From Nannocystis bainbridge (GTDB lineage Bacteria; Myxococcota_A; Polyangia; Nannocystales; Nannocystaceae): 64,000 nt of DNA. The notes beneath the pieces are model-generated. The model did not search any database, was not told where the DNA came from, and worked only from the letters and a program-made list of their open reading frames with translations. Location: the NCBI RefSeq assembly GCF_028368995.1, contig NZ_JAQNDL010000001.1, positions 3,872,001 through 3,936,000 on the forward strand. Direction: 5' to 3'. The position numbers were made by a program, and so were the translations under genes. Of the stretch, positions 1,309 through 63,144 are shown one piece after another (the stretch's first letter is position 1; the number at the start of each line of letters is the position of its first letter).

Positions 1309-1779
1309 AGACTCGCACCTGAATAGCGAGGAGCGGCAGCTCTGTCGATACGCGTCGATTCGGGACATGGCGGGTCGTGTAAGCGAGCCCAGGCGCAGGC
1401 CCGCGCCGCTGCTCGCAGTTCACGCGCCCCGAGCCGCGCTCGCAGACTCCGCACAATGACAGCAGCGGGCGAGCGCATCGATCTGTCTCTCGGGACAGCA
1501 CGCCTCCGCGCCGCAGCCATGATTCGCGACGCGCCGCGGGGGGCCTGTCCCCCGGGACATGTCAGCTCCACGGCCGAGCCCGCCGGACCGTCGGCCGGAC
1601 ACGGCGCGAGGTCACCGGACCGCCGCTGCGTGCAATCGGCTCCTGGGGATCCGCCCGAGCTTCGCGCGTACCATATGTCCCAAGAGACATATGAATTGCG
1701 GTCGCTGACCTCGCATGGCCGCGAGGACAGGTCGAGTCCGCCGGAGACGATGTCCCCGAGTCACTCCGGACGCTCGCGC

Positions 1780-3153
1780 TCACCCGCGCGGGCGCACGTG
1801 CATGAGGATGCTGCCGCGCGGGCCGACGGGGATGTTGAAGCGGTGGCGGGCGTCGCTGTTCTCGGCGACCGGCGCGAACTCGTAGCGCAGCGCCAGGCGC
1901 GACAGCACGATCTTCGCCTCGAGCAGCGAGAAGTGCTGGCCGACGCAGCTGCGCGGGCCGGTGATGAAGGGCAGCCAGCGGTGGCCGACCGGCTCGTCGC
2001 CGAGGAAGCGGTCGGGGCGGAACGCCTCGGGCTCGGGCCAGTGGCGCGGGTCCTTGTGCAGCGCCTGCATGTGCACCATCACCTTGGTGCCGCGCGGGAT
2101 GACGAGCTCGCCGAAGCGGTCGTCGACGATCGCCTCGCGCACGACGATCGGCACGATGTTGTAGAGCCGCAGCGCCTCCTTGAGGCACGCGCCGGCGAAA
2201 TCGAGGCGCTTGAGCTGCTCGTAGTCGGGCACGCCGTCGCCCTTGAACACCAGGGCCGCGTCGGCGCGCAGCCGCTCGAGCTCGGCCGGCTGCTGCGTCA
2301 ACGCGTGCAGCGTCCACGTCAGCATCGCGCTCGAGGTGTCGTGGCCGGCGAACAGCATGGTCTTGAGCTCGTCGCTGACGAGCCGCTCGCTGTCCTCGGA
2401 CCAGGTGCCGTCGTCGAGGCTGGCGAGCAGCATGTCGAGCATGTCGCTCGGGCGCGCCTTGGGGTCGGCGCGCCGCTTCTGCATGCGCGCGCGGATCTTC
2501 TCGAGCAAAAAGGCGTCGAGCTGGGCCAGCGAGCGGTCGTAGCGGAACTTCGCGGGCGTCGGTAAATAGCCGCGGAAGGGCAGCCAGACCCGCTTGTTGG
2601 CCTCTTCGACGAGGGGCTCGTAGAGCCGCGGCAGCACGTCGTCGCTCTGGTGCGGCGGCATCTGCAGCGTCGCCTCGGCGATCACCTGCAGGGTCACCCG
2701 CCGCATCTGCGCGCCGATGTCGACCGGGAGGCCGCTGCGCGCGTGGGCGTCGAGCACCGCCCCCATGCGGTCGACCGCGCGGATCGACGCCTCGGCGACG
2801 TTGCGCAGCGCGTCGATGCGGAACGCCCGGGCCAGCACCGCCCGCTGGCGCTTCCACAGCTCGCCGTCGCTGGTCAAAAGGCCATGTCCGAGGATGTCGA
2901 GGAAGGCGCCCATGGCGCGCAGATCCTTGACGTAGTGATCGGCGGCGCCGACGATCACGTGGCGGATGAACTCGGGGTCCGAGGTGACGAGGTAGCTGGC
3001 GCCGGGGATCCGCAGCCGCACGGTGGGCCCGCGCTCCCGCAGCCAGCGCTCCGTCACGTCCCACGGCGCGCCCGCCATGAGCGCGGCCATGTGACCGACG
3101 ACGGGCAGCTTCTGCGGCGCATGCGGGACCTGATCGAGCATGCGGCGGAGCAT
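1780..3153 (-). CDS. Cytochrome P450
   Basis: I-helix FAGHDT, ExxR (EALR), PDRF, heme motif FITGPRSCVG. Confidence 0.95.
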   Translation of the reverse strand: MLRRMLDQVPHAPQKLPVVGHMAALMAGAPWDVTERWLRERGPTVRLRIPGASYLVTSDPEFIRHVIVGAADHYVKDLRAMGAFLDILGHGLLTSDGELWKRQRAVLARAFRIDALRNVAEASIRAVDRMGAVLDAHARSGLPVDIGAQMRRVTLQVIAEATLQMPPHQSDDVLPRLYEPLVEEANKRVWLPFRGYLPTPAKFRYDRSLAQLDAFLLEKIRARMQKRRADPKARPSDMLDMLLASLDDGTWSEDSERLVSDELKTMLFAGHDTSSAMLTWTLHALTQQPAELERLRADAALVFKGDGVPDYEQLKRLDFAGACLKEALRLYNIVPIVVREAIVDDRFGELVIPRGTKVMVHMQALHKDPRHWPEPEAFRPDRFLGDEPVGHRWLPFITGPRSCVGQHFSLLEAKIVLSRLALRYEFAPVAENSDARHRFNIPVGPRGSILMHVRPRG

Positions 3154-3275
3154 CGACCCCAGGCCCGGGCCCGCGCAAGACCGGCCGGCCCCGAGTGTGC
3201 GGTGAGCCCGCTCAAGATCACGCGGATGCTCGCGAATTTGCCCGGGGTGCGCCTCCCTGTGCTAGAAACCCGGGC

Positions 3276-3731
3276 ATGCGCGCCCTCGGCCTCGACGTCG
3301 GTAGCAAGACGATCGGCGTCGCCGTGTCCGACCCGAGCGGCACGATCGCCAGCCCGCGCGAGGTCCTCACGCGCCGGGGTCACGCGGAGGACGCAGCCGC
3401 CATCGCCGCGCTCGCCCGCGACCTCGAAGCCGCCGACGTCGTCGTCGGCCTCCCGCTCGAGCTCGACGGCTCGGTCGGCCACCGCGCCCGCCAGGTCCAG
3501 CGCTTCCTCGCCGTCCTCGAGCCCCTGCTCGCCGCGCTGCCCGGCTCGCCGCGCGCGTCCACCTGGGACGAGCGCTTCAGCACCGCCGGGGCCGAGCGCG
3601 CCCTGCTGCAGGCCGACGTGTCCCGCACCCGCCGCAAGCAGGTCATCGACGCCGCCGCGGCCCAGTTCATCCTCGAGGGCTGGCTCGAAGGCCAGCGCCG
3701 AAGGGACATGTCCGGAGGGACAGGTACATGA
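3276..3731 (+). CDS. ruvX: Holliday junction resolvase RuvX/YqgF
   Basis: [41 protein letters not shown]; overlaps mltG start (ATGA). Confidence 0.93.
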
Positions 3732-4912: not shown

Positions 4913-5000
4913 CATGTCCCTCGGGGCATGTCGATCTCAACATGCCCGAAACGCCATGTCCGAAGAGACATGGCCGGTCGCGCATGTCCCTCGGGACACG
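4913..5000. repeat. 14-bp-period palindromic array (TGTC-N6-GACA units)
   Basis: CATG/CACG cores at 4913, 4927, 4941, 4955, 4969, 4983, 4997. Confidence 0.9.
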
Positions 5001-6950: not shown

Positions 6951-7143
6951 TCGCTGCCTGCCTGAGCTTCGGGACATGTCCGATGCGGCATGTCCTGAGA
7001 GTCAGCTGAACGCTCGCCGACCCGGGCGGCTGCCCGCGGGACCACGAGGCTGAATCAGCCCGTCGCGGCCCGTTTGGGTCACGAGCGGCGAGTGCAGCGA
7101 GCCTTCGCTGTCCCAGGTCTCGTGCCGATTCACCGGCCCGCGC

Positions 7144-7848
7144 TCACGCGCCGGTCATCTGCGCCCACGCGTCCACCGCCAGCCACGTCGTGCTCGTCGC
7201 CGCGAACGGCATCACCCCCAGGCACGGCAGCCCGCTCGCCGCCGCGATCACGGCCGGGTTGTGGGTGCGCGCCGCGTCCGGGCTGCTGTGCGTGTCGACC
7301 AGGAAGAACCCACGCGGCGGCAGGCCCAGCGCCCGCAGGCCGAAGATCGTCAGCAGCGCGTGGTTGACCCCGCCGAGGCCGAGGCGGCCGACCACCACCG
7401 GCGCCGCGGCCAGCCCGGCGATCCACGCCGGCAGCCACGTCCCGCCGGGCATCGGCACCCACAGCCCGCCCGCGCCCTCGATCAGCGTCACCGCGGGCCG
7501 GTGCTTCGCCTCGAGCGCCTCCATGGTCCTTCGGACATGCCCGATCGGCCCTGTCTCTCGCAGCATGTCCTGGGAGACATCCAGCCGCGGACCCTGCGAG
7601 AACCTCTGCGCGTCCTCGACGATGCCGGGCGCCAGCGGCTCGGCGAAGCGCAGCGGGCAGATCTCGCTGGCGGTCACGCCGAGGTCGCTGGCGGCGGCGA
7701 GGCGCTCGGGGTCACCGCTCGGCCCCTCGGGTCCGCTCGCGGCCGGCTTGAACGGCAGCGCACGCAGGCCCGCCCCCGCGGCCGCTCGCAGGAGCGCGCA
7801 CGCGAGGGTCGTCTTGCCGCAGTCGGTGTCGGTGCCGACCAGGAACAC
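7144..7848 (-). CDS. bioD: Dethiobiotin synthase
   Basis: FLVGTDTDCGKT P-loop, FKPAASG, EPLAP, IEGAGGLWVP, LGGVNHALLT. Confidence 0.9.
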   Translation of the reverse strand: MFLVGTDTDCGKTTLACALLRAAAGAGLRALPFKPAASGPEGPSGDPERLAAASDLGVTASEICPLRFAEPLAPGIVEDAQRFSQGPRLDVSQDMLRETGPIGHVRRTMEALEAKHRPAVTLIEGAGGLWVPMPGGTWLPAWIAGLAAAPVVVGRLGLGGVNHALLTIFGLRALGLPPRGFFLVDTHSSPDAARTHNPAVIAAASGLPCLGVMPFAATSTTWLAVDAWAQMTGA

Positions 7849-14642: not shown

Positions 14643-16223
<1,581 letters not shown>

Positions 16224-17178: not shown

Positions 17179-17254
17179 CCTGTCCTCGGGGACATGCCCC
17201 CGGGAGCATGCCCGAGCGAGCATGTCCCGCGAGACATGTCCACGGCGACATGTC
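17179..17254. repeat. 14-bp-period palindromic array
   Basis: CCTG/CATG cores at 17179, 17193, 17207, 17221, 17235, 17249. Confidence 0.9.
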
Positions 17255-17269
17255 CCGATTGTCGGCCGC

Positions 17270-19805: not shown

Positions 19806-21047
19806 ATGGCCGAGACGCCGCAGGACCCGAAGATCGAGCCCACTGAAGCCAGCGCCGTCCCGCCCGCGCCGCCCGTGCCGCCCGTGGGCACGCCGACCGC
19901 CGCGCTGAGCCCCGAGCTGCAGGTCGCCGCCGCCGAGCTGGCGCAGGTCGGCGACGAGACCGGCGAGCCTGTCGATGTCCCCAAGGACATGACGGCCGGC
20001 GAGATCGCCACCGTCAAGCGCTTCGCCAGGTTCCGCGCCTTCTTTGCCAAGCACGGTCACCTGCTGTGGTGGCTGCACTCGGCCTACGCCATGACCTTCG
20101 GCGCGTTCGTCATGATGTACGCCGCCGAGGGCTACGACCGCGCCCGCTGGATGGTCGTGCTGTTGTGCGCCGGCTGGCTGGTGATCGTCATGTTCTTCCG
20201 CCACTTCGGCCAGGGCCGCGGGCAGAAGGACAGGGTCACCGACGCCAAGTCGAAGCTGCGCTTCTACGTGATGACCACGGCGCTGAAGAACCTCTACCAG
20301 AGCATGCTGTTCTTCCTGGTGCCCTTCTATTGGAAGGCCGCCACGCTCGACGCCGACAACCGCTTCTTCCTCTACCTGCTCGGCCTGCTCGCGCTGCTGT
20401 CGACCGTCGACGTCGTGTTCGACCAGGTCTTGATGCGCTACAAGGCCCCGGCCTCGGTCGTCTACCTGTTCATCCTGTTCGCCTGCCTCAACCTGGTGTT
20501 GCCGGCGATCTTCCCTGACACGCGCACGCTCGTCACCTTGCTGGCCGCAGCCGCGCTGGCGACGGTGGTGTTCTTCACCATGCACGTGCCGTTCAAGAAC
20601 CTGCTCAAGCCGGCGTGGTTCTTCGCCCTGGTGGCCGCCGTCGGCATGGCCGTGTTCATCGCCTACGCCGGCCGGCGCGGCATCCCGCCGGTGCCGATGT
20701 ACGTCGCCGTCGGCGCGGTCGGCCCGACCCTCTTGCCCGACGGTCGCCTCAGCATGCACGTCAGCGCCCTCCACGAGTCGCTGATCACCGAGATGCACGC
20801 GATCACCGACGTCGTCACCCCGGGCGGCCGCGGCGACAACCTCCTGCACGTCTGGCGTCACCGCGGCCTCGAGGTCCAGCGCGGCGCCAGCGAGCCCGCC
20901 GTCGACCCACCGCCCGGCAGCGTCCGCCTGCGTTCCACCTTGCGTTCGTTCCACATCCCCTCGGACCGCACCGGCCCGTGGAGCATCGACGTCGTCACCG
21001 AGGACGACCAGTTGGTCGGGCGCGTCGAATTCGAGGTCATCCAATGA
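19806..21047 (+). CDS. Multi-TM protein with C-terminal DUF2914 domain (DUF5924-like)
   Basis: About 8 TM helices, YQSMLFFLVPFYW, IPPVP, HVWRH..G.WSIDVVTEDDQLVGRVEFEV. Confidence 0.75.
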   Translation: MAETPQDPKIEPTEASAVPPAPPVPPVGTPTAALSPELQVAAAELAQVGDETGEPVDVPKDMTAGEIATVKRFARFRAFFAKHGHLLWWLHSAYAMTFGAFVMMYAAEGYDRARWMVVLLCAGWLVIVMFFRHFGQGRGQKDRVTDAKSKLRFYVMTTALKNLYQSMLFFLVPFYWKAATLDADNRFFLYLLGLLALLSTVDVVFDQVLMRYKAPASVVYLFILFACLNLVLPAIFPDTRTLVTLLAAAALATVVFFTMHVPFKNLLKPAWFFALVAAVGMAVFIAYAGRRGIPPVPMYVAVGAVGPTLLPDGRLSMHVSALHESLITEMHAITDVVTPGGRGDNLLHVWRHRGLEVQRGASEPAVDPPPGSVRLRSTLRSFHIPSDRTGPWSIDVVTEDDQLVGRVEFEVIQ

Positions 21048-22330
21048 CGAGCGAAGTCCGCGTCCGCCCCCCACCCGGCCCGATCTTGGCCGCCCTCACC
21101 CCGCCTGGCTCGAAGAGCCTGACCAACCGCGCGCTTGTCCTTGCGGCCATGTCCGAAGGGACATCCATGCTGCGCGGCTGCCTCGACTCCGAGGACACCC
21201 AGGTCATGCGCGCCGCGCTGGCCCGCTGCGGCGTCGTCTGCGAGGCCAGCGAGGACGCCAGCGAGGTCCGCGTCACCGGCGTCGGCGGCCCGCTGACGCG
21301 CGTCGACGAGCCCGAGCGGCCGATCGACGTCGCCACCGCCGGCACCGCCGCTCGCTTCCTCGCCGCCGTGTTCGCCGCCTCGCCGATCACCTGCCTCGTC
21401 GACGGCAGCGCGCGCATGCGCGAACGGCCCATGGAGGGCCTCCTGCAGGCTCTGCGGGCCCAGGGCGCCGACATCCGCTGCACCGCCGCCGAGGACATGT
21501 TGCCGTGCGAGATCCGCGGCGCTCGCCTGCGCGGCGGCGAGATCCGCCTCGCTCGCCCGCCCAGCTCCCAGTTCATCTCCGCCCTCCTGATCGCCGCCCC
21601 GCTCGCCGACGCTCCGCTGCGCATCGTGCTCGAGCAGGGCACCCCCGCGCGGCCCTACGTCGACATGACCCTCGCCTGCCTGCGTGACTTCGGGGCCGAC
21701 GCGCGCTGGCTCGAGCGAGATGTGCTCGAGGTCAGCCCCACCACCTTGCGCGGCCGCGACTACCACGTCGAGCCCGACGCCTCCGCCGCCACCTACTTGC
21801 TGTCGCTGGCCGCGATCTTCGGCGGCGAGGTGCGCGTCCCCGGCCTCGGTCGCGCCAGCCAGCAGGGCGACACCCGCTTCTGCGACGTGCTCGGGCGCAT
21901 GGGCGCGAGCGTCCTCCAGGGCCCCGAGATCACCCTCGTGCGCGGCGCCGGCACCCTGCACGGCGTCGACCTCGACCTCTCCGACATGCCCGACACCACG
22001 CTGACCGCCGCCGTGCTCGCGCTGCACGCCGTCGGGCCGACGCGGATCCGCGGCGTCGAGGTCCTGCGTCACCACGAGAGCGACCGGATCGCCGCTGCCG
22101 CCACCGAGCTGCGCAAGCTCGGCGCCGAGGTCGTCGAGCACGAAGACGGCCTCGACATCACCCCGCCGGCGCAGATCGTCGCTGGCGCCGCGATCGACAC
22201 CTACCGCGACCACCGCGTCGCCATGGCCTTCAGTCTCGCCGGCCACGTCACGATCCGCGACCCCGGCTGCGTCGCCAAGACCTTCCCCAAGTACTTCGAG
22301 GTCCTCGCCGGCCTCGGCATGGTCGAGTGA
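21044..22330 (+). CDS. aroA: 3-phosphoshikimate 1-carboxyvinyltransferase
   Basis: PGSKSLTNR, AGTAARF, RMRERP, SSQF, EPDAS, ESDRI, DHRVAM, CVAKTFP. Confidence 0.96.
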   Translation: MTSEVRVRPPPGPILAALTPPGSKSLTNRALVLAAMSEGTSMLRGCLDSEDTQVMRAALARCGVVCEASEDASEVRVTGVGGPLTRVDEPERPIDVATAGTAARFLAAVFAASPITCLVDGSARMRERPMEGLLQALRAQGADIRCTAAEDMLPCEIRGARLRGGEIRLARPPSSQFISALLIAAPLADAPLRIVLEQGTPARPYVDMTLACLRDFGADARWLERDVLEVSPTTLRGRDYHVEPDASAATYLLSLAAIFGGEVRVPGLGRASQQGDTRFCDVLGRMGASVLQGPEITLVRGAGTLHGVDLDLSDMPDTTLTAAVLALHAVGPTRIRGVEVLRHHESDRIAAAATELRKLGAEVVEHEDGLDITPPAQIVAGAAIDTYRDHRVAMAFSLAGHVTIRDPGCVAKTFPKYFEVLAGLGMVE

Positions 22331-23658
22331 GCGTGCGCGCCGGCGACCTCGTCACCGTCGACCTCGAGGTGCTCACGCCCGAGGGCGACGGGCTGTCCGA
22401 AAGCACAGGTACTTCGGTCCATGTCCCCGGGGTTTATCCCGGCGAGCGCGCCGAGGTCCGGGTCGAGCACGTCTCGCGCCAGACCCCGCGGGCCCACGCC
22501 CGCCTGCGCACGCTGCTGCAGGCCCACCCGGCCCGGGTCGCGCCGCCCTGCCCGCACAGCGACGCCGGCATCGCCCCCCGCCGCGGCGCCTGCTCCGGCT
22601 GCCCGCTGCAGGCCCTCGACCTCGCCGCCCAGCGCGAGCTCAAGCGCGCGGCTCTGGTCCGCCGCCACGGCCTCGACCCCGGCCCGCTGGTCGCCGGCCC
22701 CGACGCCTGGGGTTATCGGTGGTCGAGCAAGCGGATCATCACAGGTACTTCGGGACATGTCCTCGTGGGCAGCTACCACCGCGGCTCGCACGCCCCGGCC
22801 GCCATGAATGACTGCCGCGTCGACCACCCGAGCATCGCCGCCGCCGCGCGCGAGCTGCAGGCCGCCGCCTCGGCCCTGGCGATCGTCCCCTACGACGAGG
22901 CCACCGGCAGCGGCGACCTGCGCTACGCCTGGTTCAAGACCGACGGCCGGGACGTCCTCCTCACCCTCATCACCGCCGCCAGCCCGAGCCCCGCGGCCGA
23001 GCTGCTACCCGCCGCCCTGAAGCTGCCCGCCGGCGTCGCCTGGAGCGTGCAGGCCGGCCGCGGCAACGCCGTGCGCGGCGAGCCGCCCGTGCAGCTGCGC
23101 GGACGACCTGTCCTTTCAGTCAGCCTCGCCGGCGTCCCCGTCGAGGTCGGCCCGCTCGGGTTCTTGCAGCCCAATCCGCGCGTCGCCGAGCTCGCCTATC
23201 GCGACCTCGTCGCCGACGAGGCCGGCGCCCCGCACCGCGGCAAACTCGCCTTCGACCTCTACGCCGGCGCCGGGGTGACGACTGCCTTGCTGCGGCGCGA
23301 GTTCGCCGAGGTCGTCCCGTGCGAGGTCTACCCCGAGAGCGCCGCCGCGCTGGGCGTCCCCGCCGAACCCGCCGAGGTCTTCCTCGCCCGCCAGCAGGCC
23401 GAAGGTCGCCACCCCGAGCTCGTCGTCGCCAACCCGCCGCGCGGCGGCATGGGCCCCGCCGTGTGCGCCGCCCTGGTCCGCCAGGCCGCCCCGCGCCTGC
23501 AGATCATGAGCTGCAGCGCCGACGCCCTGGTCCGCGACCTCGCCACGCTGCAGGCCGGCGGCTACGTCCTCCGCCGCCTGCGCGCCTACGACACCCTGCC
23601 CCACACCCCACACCTCGAGCTCGTCGCCTGGCTGTCCCACGGGACAGGCGACGACTGA
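22327..23658 (+). CDS. RlmD/TrmA-family RNA (uracil-5)-methyltransferase with TRAM domain
   Basis: TRAM N-terminus, CPH..CSGC Fe-S motif, FLQPN, DLYAGAG, NPPR.G, SCS, P.TPHLE. Confidence 0.85.
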   Translation: MSVRAGDLVTVDLEVLTPEGDGLSESTGTSVHVPGVYPGERAEVRVEHVSRQTPRAHARLRTLLQAHPARVAPPCPHSDAGIAPRRGACSGCPLQALDLAAQRELKRAALVRRHGLDPGPLVAGPDAWGYRWSSKRIITGTSGHVLVGSYHRGSHAPAAMNDCRVDHPSIAAAARELQAAASALAIVPYDEATGSGDLRYAWFKTDGRDVLLTLITAASPSPAAELLPAALKLPAGVAWSVQAGRGNAVRGEPPVQLRGRPVLSVSLAGVPVEVGPLGFLQPNPRVAELAYRDLVADEAGAPHRGKLAFDLYAGAGVTTALLRREFAEVVPCEVYPESAAALGVPAEPAEVFLARQQAEGRHPELVVANPPRGGMGPAVCAALVRQAAPRLQIMSCSADALVRDLATLQAGGYVLRRLRAYDTLPHTPHLELVAWLSHGTGDD

Positions 23659-24565: not shown

Positions 24566-24975
24566 GCAGCGCCAGGCGGCGGCCGACGCACGCATCGCAG
24601 CGCGTGTCGACTTCGCGACTGCGAAGCTCGCGACGAATGCAGCGCGCTCCGCAGTCGTGATGCGGCGCGGCGAGTCAGCACACGAATTGTCCCGAAGGAC
24701 AGGTTGCGAGCCGCCGGCCGAGCGCCGAGAGAAGTCGTTGAACATCGCCGTAGAACGCCGTTGGAGCCCGAAATTCCGCGATCCGTGCGAGCGCACACGC
24801 GTGCGCGTCCACACGGTTTTGCGACGATCCATGACGACTTCGAGAGTCGCGCGACGATCGCCGATGTTCGCCAAGCAGCTCCCCCGGCCCACCGCACGCA
24901 TCGCGCGAATCGTGCGAGAGCACACGATGCACAGCGGCACACGAAGCGACGAGCCCATGTAATTTTTTGTCTGCG

Positions 24976-30202: not shown

Positions 30203-31063
30203 TCATAACCCCGGGCCGTGCGCCCCGGCGAGGGCGTACAGCAGGATCGCGGTGGCGGCCGCGACCCCCAGCGAGTCGACCCCCGGGCGCATCGGGATCG
30301 CGACCTCGTCGTCGCCGACCGCGCGCAACGCCGCCGGCAGCCCCTGGCCCTCGCTGCCGACCAGGATCACCAGCCGCGCCGGTCGCACCACCGCCCCCAG
30401 GGGCCGCGCTCGCGGACCGGGCGTGGCCGCCAGCACGGTGGCCCCCGCCCCGCGCAGCCGCTGGACCGCCCCGACGAGGTCACCGACGCCGAGGGTCGCC
30501 TGGGCGAACACGTTCCCGGCCGCGGCGCGGATCGCCCGCCGACTCAGTGGGTCCGCGCCGGCGCGGTCGAGCAGGAGCAGGTCGACGCCAAAAGCCCGGG
30601 CAGCCCGGACGATGGCGCCGACATTGGCCGGGTCGGCCAGGCCCTGGGCGAGCAAGACGGTGTACGCCGGGCGCCCGGCGACATCTTCTAAAAGGGTGTC
30701 CTCGAGGACAGGTTGACGATCTGTCTCCGGGGACATGTCATTCCAGCGCAGCCCCGCAGGCCGCAGCCCGCAGGCCGCGACGCCGCGGTGGAAATTCTGG
30801 CCGACGGCCTGCCGCAGCACCGCCTGCTCGCCGACGTAGACCGGGACCTCGGGCCGGGCCGCCAAGATCGGCGCGAGCCGCTCGCAGTGACTGGCCGTCG
30901 TCAGCACCGAGGCCACGCCGTAGTCGCTCCGCAGCAAGCGCTCGACCACCAGCTCGCTCTCGGCGACGAAGCGGTGCGGGTCGGAGCGGTGAGCGAGCGC
31001 CTCCAGAGCCCTGTAGTCGGCGAGGCGCGGGTCGTCGGGATCGTCGACGCGAACCGGGATCAT
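30203..31063 (-). CDS. TrmH/SpoU family RNA methyltransferase
   Basis: DPANVGAIVR, DPLSRRAIR, GSEGQGL, IPM..GVDSL.VA. Confidence 0.92.
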   Translation of the reverse strand: MIPVRVDDPDDPRLADYRALEALAHRSDPHRFVAESELVVERLLRSDYGVASVLTTASHCERLAPILAARPEVPVYVGEQAVLRQAVGQNFHRGVAACGLRPAGLRWNDMSPETDRQPVLEDTLLEDVAGRPAYTVLLAQGLADPANVGAIVRAARAFGVDLLLLDRAGADPLSRRAIRAAAGNVFAQATLGVGDLVGAVQRLRGAGATVLAATPGPRARPLGAVVRPARLVILVGSEGQGLPAALRAVGDDEVAIPMRPGVDSLGVAAATAILLYALAGAHGPGL

Positions 31064-39272: not shown

Positions 39273-41099
39273 ATGGCGACCCGACCCACCGCTCCGGACC
39301 AGGCAGCGAACACGCGGCGTGAACCCGTTCCGGGCGAGACGACGACCGCCCCGCATGAGCCATCCGGGCTCGCTCCGAGCAGCGCAGCGACCGCCCAGCG
39401 CCACGAGCCCGCCCCGCTCCTGCCCCAGCGCCGCGAGAGCCTCGCGCGCGCCGTCGTCGACCTCGGCTACACGCCGGGCCGCGCCGACATGCGCGACGTC
39501 GTCGAGCTGCTCGGCGACGACGAGGACCTCGCCGTCCACGTCGAGCGCGCCCTCCTGCGGGCCGGCGCCGCCGCGGCTCCGGCCCTCCTGCGCCGCCTGC
39601 CCGGGGCAGAGCCGCCGCTGCGCCCGCGCCTCGTCCGCGTGCTCGGCCGCCTGCCTGCCGACCCCGCCATTGACATGTCCTTAAAAACATGTCTCGAAGA
39701 CCATGACCCGAAGACCAGGCGCAACGCCATCGGCGCGCTCGGCAAGCGCGGCGGCGAGGGCGTCGCCACCGCCCTGCTGACTTGCGCCCGCGCCGAGACC
39801 TCGCTGCCGCACCTGCGCAGCCTGGTCGAGGCGCTCGGCAAGGTCGGCGACGCCGACGCCCTCGCCTGGCTCGACCGCCTCGAGGCCGACGACCCCGAGC
39901 TGCAGCGCCTGACCGCGCGCGCCCGCCTGATGCTCGGCCGCAGCCTCGGCCGCGGCGAGGTCGACTCCGCGATCGACCTCGAAGCCGTCGCCCCGGCCCC
40001 GCGCCCGCTGGTGCTCGGCTGCCGCCCCGGCCTCGAGACGCTGCTCGCCGAGGCCCTCGGCGCCGCCTTCGCCCCCCGCGTCGTCGCCCCCGGCCGCGTC
40101 ACCGCGACCCTGCGCGGCCCGCTGCGCGAGCTGCTCGCCGTGCGCCTGTGGACCGAGGTCGGCCTGCCGCTGCCGCCCCTGTCCGCCGGGACAGATCTGT
40201 CCGCGGCCGTGGCGGCGCTGCTGACCGGCCCCGAGGCGCGCCTGGTCTTTGGGACATATACCAAGGGACAGGTCCGCTATCGGCTCGCCTGGGCCCGCGG
40301 CGGCCACCGCCGCGCCCTCGTGTGGCAGGTCGCCGCCGCCGCCGCCGCGCTGTGGCCGGAGCTGGTCAACGACCCACGCGAGACGACCTGGGAGGTCGTG
40401 GTCGACGACGCCGGTCTGCTCGTCCGCGCCGAGCTGCGCCCGCGCCGGTGGAGCGCCGAACGCCCGCCCGCCGACCTCACCAGCGCCAGCGCCGACGACC
40501 TCGCCAGCGACGACAAGCCCGCGCTCGAGACCACCGACCCGCGGTTCGCCTACCGCAGCGGCGACGTCCCCGCCGCCTCGCACCCGACGATCGCCGCCGC
40601 CCTCGCGCAGCTCGCCGAGGTCCGCCCCGACGACGTCGTCTGGGACCCGTTCGTCGGCTCCGGCCTCGAGCTGTGCGAGCGCGGCCTGCTCGGCCCCGCC
40701 ACGACCCTGCTCGGCACCGACCTCGACCCACGCGCCCTCGCCGTCGCCGCCACCAACCTGCGCAACGCCGGCCTGCGCGCCGACCTCCGCCAGGCCGACG
40801 CGACCACCCACCGACCGCCGGGCGTCACCCTCGTCATCACCAACCCGCCGATGGGCCGCCGCGTCCATCGCGGCGACGTCGGCCCGCTGCTGACGGCCTT
40901 CATCGCCAACGCGGCCGCGACCCTGGCCCCCGGCGGCCGCCTGGCGTGGATCTCGCCGATCCCCCGGACCACCGACCCGGCAGCCGAGGCGGCCGGCCTG
41001 GTCCTGCGCCGCTCGCTGAACCTCGACATGGGCGGCTTCACGGCCCAGCTCCAGCTGTGGGACAAGCCGTCGCGCCTGGGCCGCCGCGCCCGCGCGTGA
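39273..41099 (+). CDS. HEAT-repeat + class I SAM methyltransferase (RlmL/Trm11-like, UPF0020); start uncertain
   Basis: HEAT-like RRNAIGALGK, VEALGKVGD; ASHPTIAAALA, WDPFVGSG, GTDLD, ITNPPMG. Confidence 0.82.
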   Translation: MATRPTAPDQAANTRREPVPGETTTAPHEPSGLAPSSAATAQRHEPAPLLPQRRESLARAVVDLGYTPGRADMRDVVELLGDDEDLAVHVERALLRAGAAAAPALLRRLPGAEPPLRPRLVRVLGRLPADPAIDMSLKTCLEDHDPKTRRNAIGALGKRGGEGVATALLTCARAETSLPHLRSLVEALGKVGDADALAWLDRLEADDPELQRLTARARLMLGRSLGRGEVDSAIDLEAVAPAPRPLVLGCRPGLETLLAEALGAAFAPRVVAPGRVTATLRGPLRELLAVRLWTEVGLPLPPLSAGTDLSAAVAALLTGPEARLVFGTYTKGQVRYRLAWARGGHRRALVWQVAAAAAALWPELVNDPRETTWEVVVDDAGLLVRAELRPRRWSAERPPADLTSASADDLASDDKPALETTDPRFAYRSGDVPAASHPTIAAALAQLAEVRPDDVVWDPFVGSGLELCERGLLGPATTLLGTDLDPRALAVAATNLRNAGLRADLRQADATTHRPPGVTLVITNPPMGRRVHRGDVGPLLTAFIANAAATLAPGGRLAWISPIPRTTDPAAEAAGLVLRRSLNLDMGGFTAQLQLWDKPSRLGRRARA

Positions 41100-45416: not shown

Positions 45417-45836
45417 CGCGGGCCCGACTTTATGGGCACTCCGCATCACATCGCTGCGAACTCGGCGTGACCTTCAGCGCGCGGCTGCCCGGGCCCGGCG
45501 GATGCAGAAGCGCCGAGCATGGCCGCGAAGACACGCCGCGCGGTTCGTGCGAGGTCCCGATCCCGGGGCCCCGTCGGGCCTGTTTGCGGCGCTCGAAGGC
45601 GGCGGGATGGAAGGTGCCGGGGGTGACAGGCGCGCTCTCGAGTCTCGCGGGGTGTCGGACCTGCTCGCGGCGCTCGCCGTCATTGATGATATGTCCTAAA
45701 AGACATATCAATGCATCCCGGTGCGCAGGCCTGCGGCTGGAGGGCGACGCCGAGCGGGGGCGCTTGCCGACAGGCGTGAAACGCGCTGTGGCCGGCCGTA
45801 TTGGTCGATCGGCGCTCCTCGTGGTACCGTGGCGCG

Positions 45837-47816: not shown

Positions 47817-47878
47817 CCTGCCTGATCGGTCATGTCCGAAACGACATGCTCTACCGAGCATGTCCCCTCGAACATGCT
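47817..47878. repeat. 14-bp-period palindromic array
   Basis: CCTG/CATG cores at 47817, 47831, 47845, 47859, 47873. Confidence 0.88.
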
Positions 47879-49820: not shown

Positions 49821-50111
49821 AAGACGGGAGCAGCGGGAGCGATCCGAATCATAACCGAGGCAGGCGACATGGATCGAATCCGTCGCCAGAACGCGAGCGC
49901 CCGCGCGTTATCGCACAATCGCTCCGGCGAAGAAAGCAGCTTGCCGCAGGGGCGCGACTCGAAGCTGTCCCTCGGGACAGGAACTCGGGCGCGCGCAGGT
50001 CGAGATCCGTCACCGATCTGCGAGCCTCGCCGTCGATGCCTGCGCACACCTCCCGGCGTCGGACTCGGCTTGTAATCACCGGGTCGGTCACGCATCGTAC
50101 TCGAGCCCGTG

Positions 50112-51557: not shown

Positions 51558-52553
51558 ATGCTCCGCGGTCTGGTTCACCGTCTCGCCCCCCTCGGCTTCG
51601 CCTCCATGCTGGCCGTCTCCCTGTCGGCCGTCGCCGCTTGTGACGGCGCCGGCTCGTCCCCGCCGACCGTCGAGGTCACGAGCGACCAGCTCAAGCCGGG
51701 CGGCGTGTTCATCACCTACGTCAACGGCTGCGAGAAGGGCTGCGACCAGCTCGGCCGCGGCGACCTCGTGCTCGAGCTGAACGGCCAGCCGGTGTCGACC
51801 GCCAAGGACCTGCGCGTCAGCCAGATCGCCACCGGTCAGCCGGTCAAGCTCAAGGTGCAGAAGAAGGGCGGCCAGGTGGTCGAGGTCGAGATCGTCGCCA
51901 CCCCGAGCGAGAAGCTGCCGCCGATCAAGGAGGCCCCGCCGTTCTGGTCGGTGGGCGCCGCCGAGCTCGACAAGGCGCCCTTGTGGGCCCGCCGCAACCT
52001 GTACGGCCACGCCAGCCTCATGGCGATGCTCGTCAACATGGACGGCGGCATCACCGACGGCCGCCAGCTGGTCGGCAAGAAGCGCCTGATGCTGTTCTGG
52101 GACTGGGCGACCCGCGAGGAGCAGGCCCAGGCCGCCAACATGCTGCGCGTGCTGCAGATGGCCCGCGACGACCTGCAGAACTCGGGCGTGGAGATCATGT
52201 TCACGCACATCCAGTTCCCGTCCAACACCCGCGTGGCGCCGATGAACGACTCCGGCCTCCGCCAGTGGCAGAAGACCAGCGGCCTGCCCGACAAGGGCAC
52301 GCTGCCGACCTACCGCTTCCCCAACGCCACCGAGTACCAGCCGTCCCGCGAGCTCGGCCTCGAGGGCGCGACGACCTACCAGCAGTACCTGCGCCAGCCG
52401 CCGGCGATCGTCCTCCTCGACGAGGACGGCATCGTCCGCTGGCACTCCGAGGGCATCCAGACCCCGCCCGCCGGCGACGAGCTGGCCGGCAAGGGCAAGG
52501 ACGACCAGTGGACGATCATCCAGGCGATCGAGTTCGCCAAGAAGGAGCTCTGA
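51558..52553 (+). CDS. Lipoprotein with PDZ-like and thioredoxin-like domains
   Basis: VAAC lipobox, LGRGDLVLELNGQPV PDZ, LMLFW and P.IVLLDEDGIVRW Trx/redoxin signatures. Confidence 0.7.
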   Translation: MLRGLVHRLAPLGFASMLAVSLSAVAACDGAGSSPPTVEVTSDQLKPGGVFITYVNGCEKGCDQLGRGDLVLELNGQPVSTAKDLRVSQIATGQPVKLKVQKKGGQVVEVEIVATPSEKLPPIKEAPPFWSVGAAELDKAPLWARRNLYGHASLMAMLVNMDGGITDGRQLVGKKRLMLFWDWATREEQAQAANMLRVLQMARDDLQNSGVEIMFTHIQFPSNTRVAPMNDSGLRQWQKTSGLPDKGTLPTYRFPNATEYQPSRELGLEGATTYQQYLRQPPAIVLLDEDGIVRWHSEGIQTPPAGDELAGKGKDDQWTIIQAIEFAKKEL

Positions 52554-52684
52554 GCCGCTGACGCCGGCCTGAGCCGCATGGCCCTTCGGACCTGTCCGAA
52601 GGGCCATTTGCATTTAAGCCGGCCGAACTCGGGTCGCGAGGTCATCACGCCGGCTCGCCCGGGCCGTGGCCCCGATGGCCAGGA

Positions 52685-52747
52685 CATGTCCTCCGGGACA
52701 TGTCCATGTGAATATGTTCATCTGGACATGTCTATCGGGACATGTCC
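52685..52747. repeat. 14-bp-period palindromic array
   Basis: CATG/TATG cores at 52685, 52699, 52713, 52727, 52741. Confidence 0.92.
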
Positions 52748-56966: not shown

Positions 56967-58940
56967 GTGACGGACGCCGAGACCAGAGCCAAGGTCGGAG
57001 ACGTGCTCGGCGAGCGTTGGGAGCTGCGCGAATCGATCGATACGAGCGGCCCCGGCCGGGTCTTCTTCGCCTGGGACCGCGAGCGCCGCCAGCCCTGCGC
57101 GCTCAAGCTGTTCGACCCCGGCGCCGTCACCCCCGACGCGTTCCGCCGGTTCGCCGAGGCCGTGCGCAGCGCCGCCGCGGCGCGTCACCCCGCGCTCGTG
57201 CTGCCCGCGACACCCACCGTCGCCGGGGGCCCGCGCATCGCGGTGCGCGAATGGCTGGAGGGCCTCGACCTCGACGGCCTGCGCGGCCGCGACGGGGCGC
57301 TGCAATGGTCGCGGGCCGCCGAGATCGTGAGCACCTGCGCGGACGCGCTCGCGGTCGTTCACGAGGCCACAGGGCTCGCGCACCGCGCGCTGAAGCCTGG
57401 CAATGTGTTCATCACCGGGGACTCGCAGGTGCGGCTCCTGGACCTCGGGATCGCCGAGCTCGGCGTGACGCCGGTGCCGGCCCGCCCCGGCGGCGTGTTC
57501 GTCGAATACCGGGCGCCGGAGCAGCTCGAGGGCCACGCCGGCGACGCCCGCTCCGACGTGTTCACGCTCGCGGTGCTGCTATTCGAATCGACGACCGGGG
57601 TCCATCCATTCACCGGCGCCTCCGCGTTCAAGGCGGCCCACAAGGCGCTGCAGTCGGCGCCCGACCTGGCGACCGCCGGCCTGCCGGCCCAGGCCCGGCC
57701 GCTGCTGGTCCGCGCGCTGGCGCGGCGCCCGGAGGAGCGTCACGCCAATGCGCGCGAGTTCCTGCGCGCATTGACGCTGGTGCGGCAATCGGTCGGCAGC
57801 GCCGCCCCGCGCCCGGCCGCCGCCGTCGACAATGCACATACCGCGGAGCCCGCCGAGCCCGTCGTCGATCCGACCACGCAGCTGCGGATCCCCGTGCAGC
57901 GCCCCCAACCCGCCGCGGCGATCGAGGCGCCCGCCCGCGGCGCCAGCCAGGCCTTCATGGCCCCCGTCGCGCCGTTCACCGCCGACCCGCCCGACCTCCG
58001 CGCGGCCGACGAGCCGGCGCTGCTGGGCACCGGACGCGAGCGAGCCACCCCGACGCGCACGCCGACCACTCCTCAACCTCCGCCCTCCGCCCTGCCCCGG
58101 CTCGATCCCGAGCCGAGCACCGAACGCGACGCCCGCCGCTCCGCGCCCGCCGAGCCGACGATCTCGCTGCCCGAATCTCCACGCATGTCCCGAAAGACAG
58201 GTTCACTCGAGCCCGTCGCCCGCCAGCTCCAGGCCTCGAAGTCCGCCCGGCCCACCGCTAACTACGTCCCCGGTCCGCCCGATCTTCCCGCCGACTGGAT
58301 CACCACCGAGCGCGACCCCACCCGTCCGCCGCGAAAGCCCCTCACGCCGTCCGTCGATGACCTGGCGCGAAAGCCAGGTTCAACTCCCGGGCGCGACGAC
58401 CGACGCCAGCCCGAGCGGCCGAACCCCACCACCGACGAAGACGCGGCGACCACCGCCATGCCGACGCTGCGGCGCCCGCCGCTGAATTCCGCCGCCGGCG
58501 ACCTGCCCGACGGCCCCGGCGACGACGAAACGCGCGCGCTGCCCCGCCGCGGCCCCGGCTCGACCGTGATCGATGATGAACCGAGGGACATGCCCGCAAG
58601 GACAGGTCCACGCCCCGCCGAGGCGACGCTCGCCCTGACCGACCCATCCGTGCTCTCGCCCGGCAAGCGCCCCGAAGCGACCGTGGTCCTCGATCAACCC
58701 GGCTCCCTGCCCGCCGAATCGACGCTGGCCCTGTCTGACCCCAGGGACATGCCCCATCGGCCATCCCATGAATCACGCGACCTCGAGGATGCGCCACCGA
58801 CAGCGACCGCGCCCATCGCCCGAGCCCGCCCCGAATCCGCCCTCGACAAGCCCTGGCTGTCCCCGCGCGGCCTCATCGTCTTCAACGTCGCCCTCGGCGC
58901 CCTGATCCTCACCGCCCTCGCCGTGGTGCTGACGCGCTGA
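56967..58940 (+). CDS. Ser/Thr kinase-like protein (probable pseudokinase), C-terminal TM
   Basis: ALKL, HRALKPGN, DLG, YRAPEQ, SDVFTL; Pro/Thr-rich tail and terminal TM. Confidence 0.85.
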   Translation: MTDAETRAKVGDVLGERWELRESIDTSGPGRVFFAWDRERRQPCALKLFDPGAVTPDAFRRFAEAVRSAAAARHPALVLPATPTVAGGPRIAVREWLEGLDLDGLRGRDGALQWSRAAEIVSTCADALAVVHEATGLAHRALKPGNVFITGDSQVRLLDLGIAELGVTPVPARPGGVFVEYRAPEQLEGHAGDARSDVFTLAVLLFESTTGVHPFTGASAFKAAHKALQSAPDLATAGLPAQARPLLVRALARRPEERHANAREFLRALTLVRQSVGSAAPRPAAAVDNAHTAEPAEPVVDPTTQLRIPVQRPQPAAAIEAPARGASQAFMAPVAPFTADPPDLRAADEPALLGTGRERATPTRTPTTPQPPPSALPRLDPEPSTERDARRSAPAEPTISLPESPRMSRKTGSLEPVARQLQASKSARPTANYVPGPPDLPADWITTERDPTRPPRKPLTPSVDDLARKPGSTPGRDDRRQPERPNPTTDEDAATTAMPTLRRPPLNSAAGDLPDGPGDDETRALPRRGPGSTVIDDEPRDMPARTGPRPAEATLALTDPSVLSPGKRPEATVVLDQPGSLPAESTLALSDPRDMPHRPSHESRDLEDAPPTATAPIARARPESALDKPWLSPRGLIVFNVALGALILTALAVVLTR

Positions 58941-61141: not shown

Positions 61142-63144
61142 CGCGACCTCCGCGAAGCTGGCGCCGGGGACATGTCCCTTCGGCCATCTAGCGCCGAATT
61201 CACGCTCTTGCGGGCCCCTGCAGCAGATGGCGCCGGGGACATGTTCTTCGGGTCAGCCGCCTTGCCGCTGGTCGGCGGCGGCGGCAGCAGCGGCGGCTTG
61301 CCGCGCTCGTGGGTGGCGCGCTCGACCTCGAGGTTGCGCAGCAGCAGCGACGGGCTGACGGCCGACACCGGCACATCGCCCGACTCCGCGCCGCACATCC
61401 CGTTGAAGATCCCCGGCGTGTCGCCGGTCGCCGCGATCGTCTCGAACGCCGCCAGCGGCGTCCCGACGATGTCGACCCCGCGGACCAGCTCGTCGGGGCG
61501 GCCGTCGGCCCAGATCCGGTAGACCAGCAGCGGCATCACCTTGAACGCCTGCGGGCCCGAGCGCTCGGTCGTGGTGTAGCCGCCCTGGATGTCGGAGAAC
61601 CACAGCCCGTACGGCTTGCCCTGCCGCTTGACCTCGTCGATGAGCGCGCGGCGGAGCTCCTTGTCGGGGATCGTCTTGCGGCTGGTGACGATCAGGTTGC
61701 CCTGGCGGGCCACCGCCTGGTACCCGCGCTCGCGCCGGCCGTGGCCGTTGCTCTTCGTGAACGGCAGCACCGGCGAGCGACCGAGCAGGAACGTGCGCAG
61801 CTTGCCGCGCTCGACCAGCACCACCCGCTCGGCCGGCACCCCCTCGTCGTCGACGTGGTAGTGGCCCGACAGCGGCACGCCGCCGAGCGTCTCGGCCGTG
61901 GGGTCGTCGACCATGTCCAAAAAGACAGGCAGCACCCGCTTGCCGATCATGTTGGCGAAGGTCTGACCCTCGAGGTCGTCCTTCTGCCGGTGGCCCTCGA
62001 GGCGGTGGCCGAAGATCTCGTGGAAGAACACCCCCGCCGCGCGGCCGGCCAGCACCGCCGGCCCGTTGTAGGGCTCGGCCAGCGGCGCCACCCGCAGCGC
62101 CAGCACCTCGTCGCGCAGGCGCTTGGCGGTGGCCACCAGCACCGACTGCGCCGGCATCTGCTCCGGGTCCATCGCCTCGAAGCTCTCGAAGCGGTCGAGC
62201 GTCATGCCGTCGTCGGCCTGGGCCTTGGCCTGCAGCATCAGGCGCAGGCGCACCTGCGAGCCCTGGATCCGCGTGTTCTCGCTGTTGACGTAGGCGCGGT
62301 TGTCGACCCACGCCAGGAACACCGCCTGGCTCTCGAGCACGTGCGGGTCGTCGGCCAGCGCCGCCGAGATCTCGCGCAGCCGCGGCTCCCACAGCTTGCC
62401 CAGCGCGGCGAGGTCGAGGCTGACCGGCGGCTCGGCGTGGATGTTCGGCTTCTCCTCGCTGAAGTCCGGCGACGGCGGCTTGTCCTCGGTCTGGCTCTTC
62501 AGCTGCTCGGCGCTCTCGGCCGCGCTGAAGGCCGCCAGCGCGTCCTTGTACTGCGCCTCGGTGTACTGCCAGAGCGCCTGCGACAGCGCCAGCGGATCGC
62601 TCTGCACCGACACGAACATGCCGCTGCCGAGCCCGTTGCCCGGCCCGTAGTTGGCGTCGCCCGGGTGGCTGTTGTCGAGCTGGCGCGTGCCGACGCGGAC
62701 GTCGACGTCGACCGTGCGGTCGGTGTCGGTCCGGTTGCGCACGATCTGCCCGTTCTGCGCCTCGAGCCACAGGTGGTCGCGGGCGATCAGGTCGTAGGCG
62801 AGGAAGTACGCCGGCACCTCCGCGCCCTCGCCCTGCAGCTGGGTCAGGTTCTTGAGTGTCTCTTGGGCCAGGAAATCAAGGACAGGTTCGGGCAGGCCCA
62901 CCGGGGCCCGCTTGCGCGTGATCGCGTGCTCGCGCGCCGCATCGCCGCCGACCTCCCACACGTCCGCCGCCGGCGACGTGGTCGCCTTGCGCGGCTGGCA
63001 GCTCACCAGCGTCAGCGCCCCGACCAGCGCGGCCAACCACGGGCGCGCCGTCAGGGCACCCGCGCTCGCGGCGTCTCGGCTCGCGCGCGAGAGCGCCGGG
63101 GTCGCCGCGGGTCTGGCCGACATCGGCCGCATGATAACCGACAT
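61138..63144 (-). CDS. TldD-family metallopeptidase, putative lipoprotein; start uncertain
   Basis: GVFFHEIFGHRLEG, DDEG, SNGHGR, GMCGAESG..PVS; LVSC lipobox. Confidence 0.87.
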   Translation of the reverse strand: MSVIMRPMSARPAATPALSRASRDAASAGALTARPWLAALVGALTLVSCQPRKATTSPAADVWEVGGDAAREHAITRKRAPVGLPEPVLDFLAQETLKNLTQLQGEGAEVPAYFLAYDLIARDHLWLEAQNGQIVRNRTDTDRTVDVDVRVGTRQLDNSHPGDANYGPGNGLGSGMFVSVQSDPLALSQALWQYTEAQYKDALAAFSAAESAEQLKSQTEDKPPSPDFSEEKPNIHAEPPVSLDLAALGKLWEPRLREISAALADDPHVLESQAVFLAWVDNRAYVNSENTRIQGSQVRLRLMLQAKAQADDGMTLDRFESFEAMDPEQMPAQSVLVATAKRLRDEVLALRVAPLAEPYNGPAVLAGRAAGVFFHEIFGHRLEGHRQKDDLEGQTFANMIGKRVLPVFLDMVDDPTAETLGGVPLSGHYHVDDEGVPAERVVLVERGKLRTFLLGRSPVLPFTKSNGHGRRERGYQAVARQGNLIVTSRKTIPDKELRRALIDEVKRQGKPYGLWFSDIQGGYTTTERSGPQAFKVMPLLVYRIWADGRPDELVRGVDIVGTPLAAFETIAATGDTPGIFNGMCGAESGDVPVSAVSPSLLLRNLEVERATHERGKPPLLPPPPTSGKAADPKNMSPAPSAAGARKSVNSALDGRRDMSPAPASRRSR

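Follow-up and report, generated by a model that had tools for sequence, protein, structure and literature searches.

Short palindromes that recur throughout bacterial genomes, among them the highly iterated palindrome HIP1, the repetitive extragenic palindromic (REP) units, dRS3 and the uptake sequences, are old puzzles, and each well defined case helps to separate selection from drive. REP units and the bacterial interspersed mosaic elements (BIMEs) are built from short palindromic units, number in the thousands, cluster after gene ends and are accompanied by RAYT (Y1) transposases, the genes of which they usually flank. Dimeric helix-turn-helix and ribbon-helix-helix proteins bind operators such as the 14-bp operators of the 434 type and the tandem met boxes, and sites of the CRP/MrpC type read TGTGA-N6-TCACA or GTGTC-N8-GACAC, with a TGT-N10-ACA spacing. 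HIP1 (GCGATCGC) of the cyanobacteria is hyper-abundant in genes and spacers and conserved between genomes, with its function unresolved in the accessible part of the account by Xu et al. (2018); the accessible part of a 2026 paper in Genome Biology and Evolution (GBE) treats it as a possible broad uptake sequence. The dRS3 repeat of Neisseria, as described in the accessible part of Schoen et al. (2009), is a 20-bp element, ATTCCC(N8)GGGAAT, with about 700 copies standing in intergenic arrays, the Neisseria intergenic mosaic elements (NIMEs). Here we describe an element of comparable kind, TGTC-N6-GACA, in a 64,000-nucleotide stretch of the Nannocystis bainbridge genome (the window; C1:3872001-3936000, where C1 is contig NZ_JAQNDL010000001.1). 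The assembly comprises 11.05 Mb in five contigs with 71.5% G+C.

Abundance, spacing and form of the palindrome

TGTC-N6-GACA is a real, very strong and clade-specific iterated palindrome. The window contains 31 exact sites, compared with 0.43 expected and a largest count of two in 100 dinucleotide-preserving shuffles; when up to one mismatch is accepted there are 73 sites, compared with 19.1 expected and a largest count of 32. The first-pass annotation, made from the letters of the window, had reported about 30 exact copies and a rough expectation of about 0.4. All 30 of its coordinates are correct, a single site (40180) was overlooked, and the shuffles reproduce its estimate. Genome-wide the N6 spacing occurs 3,663 times, while each of the other spacings between N0 and N19 occurs 29–175 times, about 80 being typical; N8 occurs only 29 times. 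A count of 984 for TGTC-N20-GACA is explained by units that stand head-to-tail with a 14-bp period. Copies carrying one mismatch show the same preference, with 8,008 at N6 against 1,421–3,428 at N4, N5, N7 and N8.

The excess extends into genes. Within 6.06 Mb of confidently coding sequence we count 715 copies of TGTC-N6-GACA against 48.6 after synonymous-codon shuffling, a 15-fold difference, and the control spacings show little or no excess (N4, 56 observed and 53 after shuffling; N7, 76 and 57). Since this protein-preserving shuffling abolishes 93% of the coding copies, a peptide motif is ruled out as their cause. Chance and composition are likewise ruled out by the dinucleotide shuffles, the spacing series, the synonymous shuffling and a reversed-genome control described below. 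Both comparisons put forward in the annotation, that of N6 with other spacings genome-wide and that with a codon-preserving shuffle, thus single out N6. Its description of the element as chromosome-wide with a strictly fixed spacing also holds, as the spacing series and the presence of copies in all 250-kb bins of the contigs agree with it. The density in these bins lies between 0.13 and 0.52 per kb and shows no gradient between origin and terminus.

Alignment of all copies shows that the arms are longer than 4 bp and can be written ACATGTCC-nnnn-GGACATGT. The earlier statement that the arms are fixed therefore stands with this extension, and the accompanying statement that the 6-bp spacer varies stands only in part: in the exact copies (n=3,663) the first spacer base is C in 75% and the sixth is G in 72%. 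The commonest spacer hexamer accounts for 107 of the 3,663. When a symmetric 26-nt profile was iterated on the genome it converged on GGACATGTCC-nnnn-GGACATGTCC, the best-conserved part of which is a pair of CATG tetramers 14 bp apart. At a threshold of at least 16 bits this profile has about 8,700 matches (8,762 and 8,738 in two runs), or about 1 per 1.3 kb, compared with 12 in the reversed genome. The decamer GGACATGTCC alone is found 956 times genome-wide against 5–10 expected.

Adjoining units meet at the junction GACATGTC, which occurs 2,237 times; on one side or both of 88% of these junctions stands a partner arm with no more than one mismatch, and therefore the unit comes at least as a pair. 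The commonest distances between successive exact copies are 14, 28, 42 or 56 bp. Counting units with at most one mismatch, we find 8,866 singles, 1,036 doubles, 170 triples, 33 fours, 17 fives and one six. Some adjoining units within the arrays are identical to each other, which suggests slippage. The full form of the element is two GGACATGTCC-like boxes with CATG centres 14 bp apart, often repeated head-to-tail in arrays with a 14-bp period. A BLAST search of four motif-rich spacers against the genome gave hits of 24–101 nt only and no longer repeat family, and a larger composite repeat around the copies was rejected on these grounds; the hits themselves we attribute to motif runs from their length and frequency rather than from their alignments.

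Two other features were noted near motif copies. Runs of the type tttt(t)aaaa(a) lie near the motif in several spacers, and TTTTAAAA occurs 54 times genome-wide compared with 1.9 expected from base composition, with examples at 45336-45836 in the window and in orthologous spacers of three congeners (G001, G003 and G007).

Placement in the genome

The coding and intergenic figures given here depend on a codon-usage open reading frame caller that we wrote ourselves, which predicts 8,008 genes covering 83% of the genome. Predicted genes contain 1,299 of the 3,663 exact copies. Convergent spacers, which total 304 kb, hold 899; tandem spacers (1,018 kb) hold 1,217 and divergent spacers (527 kb) hold 246. 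The profile matches are distributed in the same manner. At least one match is present in 797 of 1,275 convergent spacers (63%; 9.19/kb), in 1,058 of 3,498 tandem spacers (2.82/kb) and in 253 of 1,443 divergent spacers (0.97/kb), while 2,449 of 8,738 matches (about 28%) lie wholly inside predicted genes, at 0.27/kb. Convergent spacers are thus 10-fold denser than divergent spacers and 34 times denser than genes. Copies in tandem spacers lie at a median distance of 74 nt from the upstream stop codon, compared with 196 nt from the downstream start. The first-pass annotation overlooked the strongest clue to function: this concentration at gene 3' ends and in convergent spacers, with avoidance of divergent promoter spacers, together with the 14-bp arrays.

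Inside genes the copies are spread evenly along the length, and two of the three reading phases are favoured (517, 384 and 85 copies). Pfam confirmed window genes that carry copies (nine were checked), and this result together with the even spread counters the suggestion that the coding copies come from mis-called genes. Of the coding copies in the window, the one at 7566 falls within the AAA_26 domain and that at 61914 within PmbA_TldD_3rd; the rest are located in linkers or termini.

Gaps between loci are roughly exponential (coefficient of variation 1.13) with a surplus of long ones, 15 being longer than 30 kb against 1.5 expected, and an even spacing of the loci is therefore ruled out. Nine of the 12 longest motif-free gaps, which measure 30–44 kb, have 67–70% G+C; these long gaps of lower G+C are probably foreign DNA.

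Constraint on the sequence and competing explanations

In the syntenic DNA of five congeners, 14 of the 31 window sites could be aligned, and the identity is 94% in the arms, 86% in the flanks and 79% in the spacers. The same identity figures came from a larger set: of 225 sites in 0.58 Mb, 71 aligned with at least one of two congeners, yielding 133 rows. At third codon positions 236 of 241 arm bases (97.9%) are identical to the congener, compared with 1,526 of 1,870 flank bases (81.6%) and 124 of 168 spacer bases (73.8%). The difference between arms and flanks is significant for the combined data (Fisher p = 5e-14) and for each congener alone (1e-6 and 2e-8). These results show purifying constraint at the level of the DNA, even at synonymous positions within genes. 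We also note that, at third codon positions in this region (C1:3.61-4.20 Mb), evolution is faster in the 6-bp centre than around it (p = 0.018), which could be owing to relaxed constraint or to a mutable centre.

The constraint acts on the sequence rather than on base pairing. Changes in a single arm are four to five times more frequent than background (for example TGCC..GACA, 673 against 160), and compensated double changes stay at background (TGCC..GGCA, 295 against 298; TGGC..GCCA, 428 against 435; TGAC..GTCA, 116 against 84). In genes and intergenic DNA alike, pairs of positions in the spacer and flanks show no more complementarity than would be expected if they varied independently, and the six bases on each side of the GACATGTC junction show no excess complementarity apart from a small tail of perfect palindromes. 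The element is therefore kept as sequence and not as a base-paired stem, and its pairing is not under selection.

This bears directly on the proposal that the copies act as RNA hairpins, either as bidirectional terminators lacking a T-tract or as stabilizers of the 3' ends of mRNAs, with an RNA-binding protein or an RNase as a possible reader. A copy could form an 8-bp stem closed by a 4-nt loop, a palindrome would function on either strand, and the occupancy of 63% of convergent spacers, with copies close behind stop codons, is what such a role would produce. However, besides the missing compensatory changes, loops in spacers between co-oriented genes show no preference for the transcribed strand (for example CCGAAG, 36, and CTTCGG, 28), and a run of T4 or A4 stands beside just 285 of 6,019 intergenic copies, compared with 2.2% of random intergenic positions. 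The region 16001-36000 has three terminator-like sites, with no motif copy among them. About 2,450 copies are distributed evenly within genes, a place where termination would do harm, and the arms are kept as a specific sequence that is relatively rich in A+T, even though a stem of any G+C-rich sequence would fold better. We consider an RNA hairpin improbable. Assignment to the Rho-independent terminators was rejected in the same way, as the element lacks their T-tract and its stem shows no compensatory change, and no RNA family in Rfam matches the motif in the window at the gathering score.

A second proposal is that of a REP-like selfish palindrome, which a nuclease or transposase acting in trans would spread and which would survive after gene ends, where it does least harm. 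The thousands of copies with hairpin potential, the clusters and arrays, and the preference for 3' ends and convergent spacers are all typical of REPs, and the fast turnover of intergenic copies would also be accommodated. Intergenic spacers are too diverged for alignment, yet each species carries its own copies in them. A comparison of two closer congeners covered 32 sites, of which 14 are exact in both genomes, two are point-changed and 16 could not be aligned; in the reverse direction the corresponding numbers are 14, three and 18 of 35. In neither comparison was a unit seen to have been cleanly inserted or deleted.

The single coding copy that was compared with homologues, at 61914, tells against insertion as well. 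It reads CCT GTC TTT TTG GAC ATG (P V F L D M) with rare codons, in a block that shows no insertion or deletion relative to six homologues, and it was therefore made by substitution. In the cases examined, then, copies arise in place by substitution, with slippage suggested as the source of local tandem duplication, and no insertion of a mobile unit lies behind them. Nor is the spacer copied along with the arms: the top hexamer makes up only 107 of the 3,663 exact copies, and orthologous copies keep the arms and change the spacer. About 28% of the profile matches are evenly spread inside genes instead of being confined to extragenic DNA, and their arms are constrained at synonymous sites.

Searches for mobile-element partners of the motif were also negative. 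The Y1/RAYT transposase family PF01797 has no matches in the genome, the assembly of which is rated 90% complete; the same search was positive in six of 14 known genomes used as a control. Four insertion sequence (IS)-like families were recovered by self-BLAST, and in the ten copies inspected none has the motif at its ends, which rules out a miniature inverted-repeat transposable element of a resident IS. No longer repeat surrounds the copies. A REP-like origin is thus unlikely in our view. The IS-like repeats are only a handful in 11 Mb, measuring 1.3–2.1 kb with two or three copies each, and their loci include C1:555903-557318, C2:2315113-2316528 and C3:876248-877661. The end of contig C1 is a self inverted repeat with a match of about 99.5% to the end of C2 (C1:4515659-4536530, C2:3021502-3033751); this reflects either a fold-back artefact of the assembly or a genuine long inverted duplication at the terminus.

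The distribution among relatives is sharply bounded. Enrichment is seen in each of the ten other genomes of the genus (one has 3,957 copies, with 42 in the control); it is moderate in some further genera of the family and absent from 12 other families of the class. Of 73 Nannocystaceae genomes, 23 carry an 18-bp form, CATGTCC-N4-GGACATG, namely 11 of 11 in g1, five of five in g2 and seven of seven in g4, whereas none of the 50 genomes of 14 other genera of the family does; controls gave 0–1. A 200-kb sample of a g4 genome contains 23 copies at N6 against 0–1 at other spacings, with the same consensus, and a g2 sample is weakly enriched (8 against 1–6). The survey of Nannocystaceae and other families that had been proposed therefore confines the element, in its 18-bp form, to Nannocystis and two sister genera.

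Such a distribution is also expected of a self-DNA tag kept by drive, comparable to an uptake signal sequence (USS) or DNA uptake sequence (DUS), where tagged DNA would be preferentially taken up and recombined. The density of about 1 per 1.3 kb, the restriction to a clade of three genera, the absence from long stretches of lower G+C and the conservation of orthologous sites fit a tag of this kind, as do coding copies that are made with unusual codons and that in some window genes lie outside annotated domains. The argument that HIP1 is a broad uptake sequence, as put in the accessible part of the 2026 GBE paper, keeps the drive explanation alive by analogy. The DUS is, however, an asymmetric contiguous word in the accessible descriptions and not a strictly spaced palindrome, and an uptake bias alone would leave both the 14-bp arrays and the 10-fold contrast between convergent and divergent spacers unexplained. 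We judge such a tag to be quite unlikely.

The last proposal links the palindrome, as a HIP-like element, to methylation: CATG or GACA would be methylated by an orphan methyltransferase, and the motif would be kept by selection or by repair that favours the methylated context. The strongest positions of the profile are indeed the two CATG tetramers, and the element is hyper-abundant in genes and spacers and conserved between genomes, as is HIP1 in the accessible part of its description (Xu et al., 2018). Candidate enzymes are available, with about ten methylase genes of the N6_N4 type, one of the D12 type and two type I pairs of modification and specificity genes (C2:1539631-1542280 and C1:2005710-2009002), the neighbours of which include no obvious restriction gene, as judged by length and first residues only. 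However, a type I methylase with a symmetric target is unlikely because the recognition halves of both HsdS proteins are dissimilar. The D12 methylase is ruled out as a partner: its family, the one profiled for the co-occurrence with methylases that the annotation had proposed, is present in 69 of 73 genomes of the family and therefore does not track the element. A search of the genome for a C5 methylase was negative, and modification would leave the arrays and the 3'-end bias unexplained. A methylation-linked origin is, in our assessment, very unlikely.

The sites in the window and their state in the congeners are listed in Table 1. One further structure lies among them, a perfect hairpin with a 14-bp stem (52578-52608) directly 3' of the stop codon of gene 51558..52553. 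It is present at the same place, with small differences, in five of five congeners and contains a one-mismatch motif copy, and it looks like an ordinary conserved terminator stem. The sole Rfam match in the window is a tRNA gene on the minus strand (41163-41235).

Table 1. Copies of the palindrome in the window, with their genomic context and conservation. Positions are those of the window.
Positions	Feature	Context	Congeners
1484..1689	Three exact copies (1484, 1546, 1676)	Spacer between two minus-strand genes	Unalignable
3709..3722	Single copy	Last codons of RuvX-family gene (residue about 144 of 151)	Arms kept in 5/5, spacer differs
4915..4998	Four-unit cluster (4915, 4929 one-mismatch; 4957, 4985 exact)	Convergent spacer	
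6977..7004	Two adjoining one-mismatch units, 14 bp apart	Convergent spacer	
7566..7579	Single copy	Within AAA_26 (dethiobiotin-synthase-like) domain of gene 7144..7848 (minus strand)	Exact in 3/5 with three different spacers, decayed in 2/5
17181..17264	Tandem array of six 14-bp units (three exact, three degenerate)	Between convergent genes	Different arrays at the same place
19976..19989	Single copy	N-terminal part of DUF5924/DUF2914 gene	Arms kept in three aligned, spacers changed
21136..21163	Two adjoining units (one-mismatch, then exact)	Start of gene 21167..22330	Exact unit identical in 5/5
23633..23646	Single copy	Last codons of gene 22327..23658	Four aligned: core exact in three (spacers differ), one arm base changed in G005
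24688..24701	Single copy	Divergent spacer	Arms kept in 5/5
30697..30735	Two copies (30697, 30722)	N-terminal region of SpoU-methylase-family gene	30697, core exact in 4/5; 30722, exact in 2/5 and at least one arm change in the other three
32749..32996	Five exact copies, 39–96 bp apart	Spacer between two minus-strand genes (32715-33006); no longer repeat family	3–5 copies each in four; sequence unalignable
34574..34841	Two copies (34574, 34828)	Between annotated domains of 986-aa HATPase/transglutaminase-like gene	
40180..40193	Single copy	Between HEAT and methyltransferase domains of gene 39273..41099	Arms kept in 5/5
45692..45705	Single copy with extended palindrome (flank ATA/TAT)	Divergent spacer	
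47833..47874	Exact and one-mismatch copy, 28 bp apart	Convergent spacer	
49966..49979	Single copy	Divergent spacer	One arm differs in 5/5
52593..52742	Two exact copies (52687, 52729) and one-mismatch copies at 52715 and 52593 (the latter inside the conserved hairpin)	Convergent spacer	
58186..58199	Single copy	C-terminal region of Ser/Thr kinase gene, outside the kinase domain	
61914..61927	Single copy	Within conserved PmbA/TldD C-terminal domain (PmbA_TldD_3rd)	Identical in 5/5

A predicted protein site and its relation to known systems

The arms are unchanged even where the code allows change, and the palindrome is therefore probably read by the cell as a DNA signal. One helical turn, 10 bp, separates the centres of the two arms, and three units occupy 42 bp, or four helical turns. 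Arm centres one turn apart, strict spacing and an unread centre together point to the geometry of a dimeric DNA-binding protein. The reading that we prefer, with a probability of roughly 0.4, is that the element is a dyad-symmetric site for a protein dimer or tetramer; selection would maintain this site, and it would act as a gene-end barrier. An abundant protein, either a dimer or a dimer of dimers, would read the element on double-stranded DNA; the pairing of decamer boxes and the 14-bp arrays would suit a dimer of dimers that coats the DNA cooperatively. Bound copies would be expected to interfere with transcription, as the 10-fold contrast between convergent and divergent spacers implies. 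Because they would hinder transcription, copies would be selected against in promoter-bearing spacers and would build up after gene ends. There they may serve as bidirectional transcription barriers or insulators, or as topological (supercoil) or nucleoid anchors, and a barrier would be well suited to a 72% G+C genome with few T-tract terminators.

A wider form of this proposal is a gene-end marking system shared by Nannocystis and the two sister genera. An abundant sequence-specific protein would coat some 8,700 sites, cooperatively in 14-bp arrays in most convergent spacers, and would serve both as a bidirectional roadblock or insulator of transcription and as the boundary of nucleoid or supercoil domains. 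Selection for the sites would then have to be sufficient to fix rare codons in conserved proteins. We regard a system of this breadth as possible but doubtful.

Several observations weigh against the protein-site reading. The predicted binding is drawn solely from the geometry and the pattern of conservation. The gene model underlying all of the coding and intergenic numbers is a crude codon-usage caller without curation, and the bias toward 3' ends and convergent spacers is also typical of REP elements and terminator hairpins. The conservation test comprises 84 site-by-genome rows, which are not independent, from one 0.58-Mb region and two related genomes, and drive in the form of biased uptake or biased repair would conserve the arms too. 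Long perfect palindromes form a small tail, with 32 observed against 4 expected. Finally, a full 24-nt copy folds as single-stranded DNA at -7.7 kcal/mol (z = -5.1) and a 71-nt cluster at -23 kcal/mol (z = -6.9), so that a structural role is possible; the folding of a weaker copy is unremarkable (z = +0.4).

Searches for the protein itself covered two groups of genes. Copies flank 245 genes on both sides, and the 20 best-flanked translations, inspected by eye without a family-library scan, look like ordinary metabolic, membrane or unrecognised proteins. A further 83 small genes have a copy in their divergent upstream spacer. No autoregulated DNA-binding candidate stood out among the 83 and 245 genes, a weak result since they were inspected by eye with no Pfam scan. 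The box GGACATGTCC resembles a p53 half-site; a p53-like domain had no match in the genome. A phage-borne site was rejected after a viral contig collection gave eight contigs with one motif match each, which we take, by judgement and not by computation, to be about chance level. The sharp division between 23 genomes with the 18-bp form and 50 without it should nevertheless make a reader protein findable. The protein-site reading first offered in the annotation thus survives in that the element behaves as a DNA-sequence signal and not as a pairing or copy-and-paste unit, while no binding protein, methylase or nucleoid role was identified for it.

The case is unusually clean, with its strict spacing, the large contrast between spacers and genes, the constraint at synonymous sites and the split of 23 against 50 genomes. 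If the element is indeed the site of a DNA-binding barrier protein, it would represent a sequence-specific means of ending or insulating transcription that we know from no other bacterium, and it would offer a practical tool for gene-end annotation and for the engineering of myxobacteria rich in natural products.

No description of the element was found in the literature searched, which excluded subscription journals and supplementary files; with no Rfam match in the window either, the annotation's remark that it matches no analogue known to it is supported. The separation from CRP/MrpC sites that was drawn at the outset is equally sound. The arms are of the same TGT(C)/(G)ACA type, but the enriched form is TGT-N8-ACA, its triplets being 8 bp apart here instead of 10; this 2-bp difference in spacing rules out a CRP/MrpC-type operator, and TGTC-N8-GACA is correspondingly rare. 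The resemblance to the 434-type operators and met boxes is closer, with two arms of 4–5 bp one turn apart, an unread centre and strict spacing, and with tandem boxes of fixed period that suggest cooperative binding. Such operators are, however, few per genome, compared with about 8,700 matches for this element.

Like the REP and BIME units, the element consists of short palindromic units in the thousands, clustered and placed after gene ends. It differs from them in having no RAYT gene and no conserved loop, in a unit of only 14–20 bp and in the 28% of copies that are intragenic and under constraint at the DNA level. The DUS and USS, as far as the accessible accounts describe them, share a density of about 1 per kb, restriction to a clade, occurrence in coding sequence and at terminator positions, and absence from foreign DNA, but they are asymmetric contiguous words whereas this is a strictly spaced palindrome with arrays. 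With dRS3 and the NIMEs, in the accessible part of their description, it shares a unit length of about 20 bp, inverted arms that are conserved at both ends of the unit, a centre that varies in sequence but not in length, a copy number in the hundreds or higher and a concentration in intergenic arrays. Unlike dRS3, it does not alternate with families of 30–160 bp RS-type repeats in mosaic arrays and is also found inside genes. No link was seen to phages or to integrases, one of which uses the dRS3 unit as its target, the viral collection having given only the eight single matches.

HIP1 and the present element are both lineage-specific, hyper-abundant palindromes that exceed a codon-aware expectation and are conserved at orthologous sites, to judge from the accessible part of the HIP1 literature. 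The element is over-represented in coding and non-coding DNA and conserved above its local background, as HIP1 is. HIP1 is, however, a contiguous 8-mer, and where a HIP1-like element would be a contiguous palindrome forming an orphan-methyltransferase target, this motif is bipartite with a free centre of 4–6 bp and contains CATG. It also forms tandem arrays with a 14-bp period, and its density in convergent spacers is 34 times that in genes. In our view the element is a new case within the class of highly iterated palindromes, for which the original idea of a protein site is plausible; as far as the accessible descriptions allow, it behaves most like HIP1 and its architecture resembles that of Neisseria dRS3.

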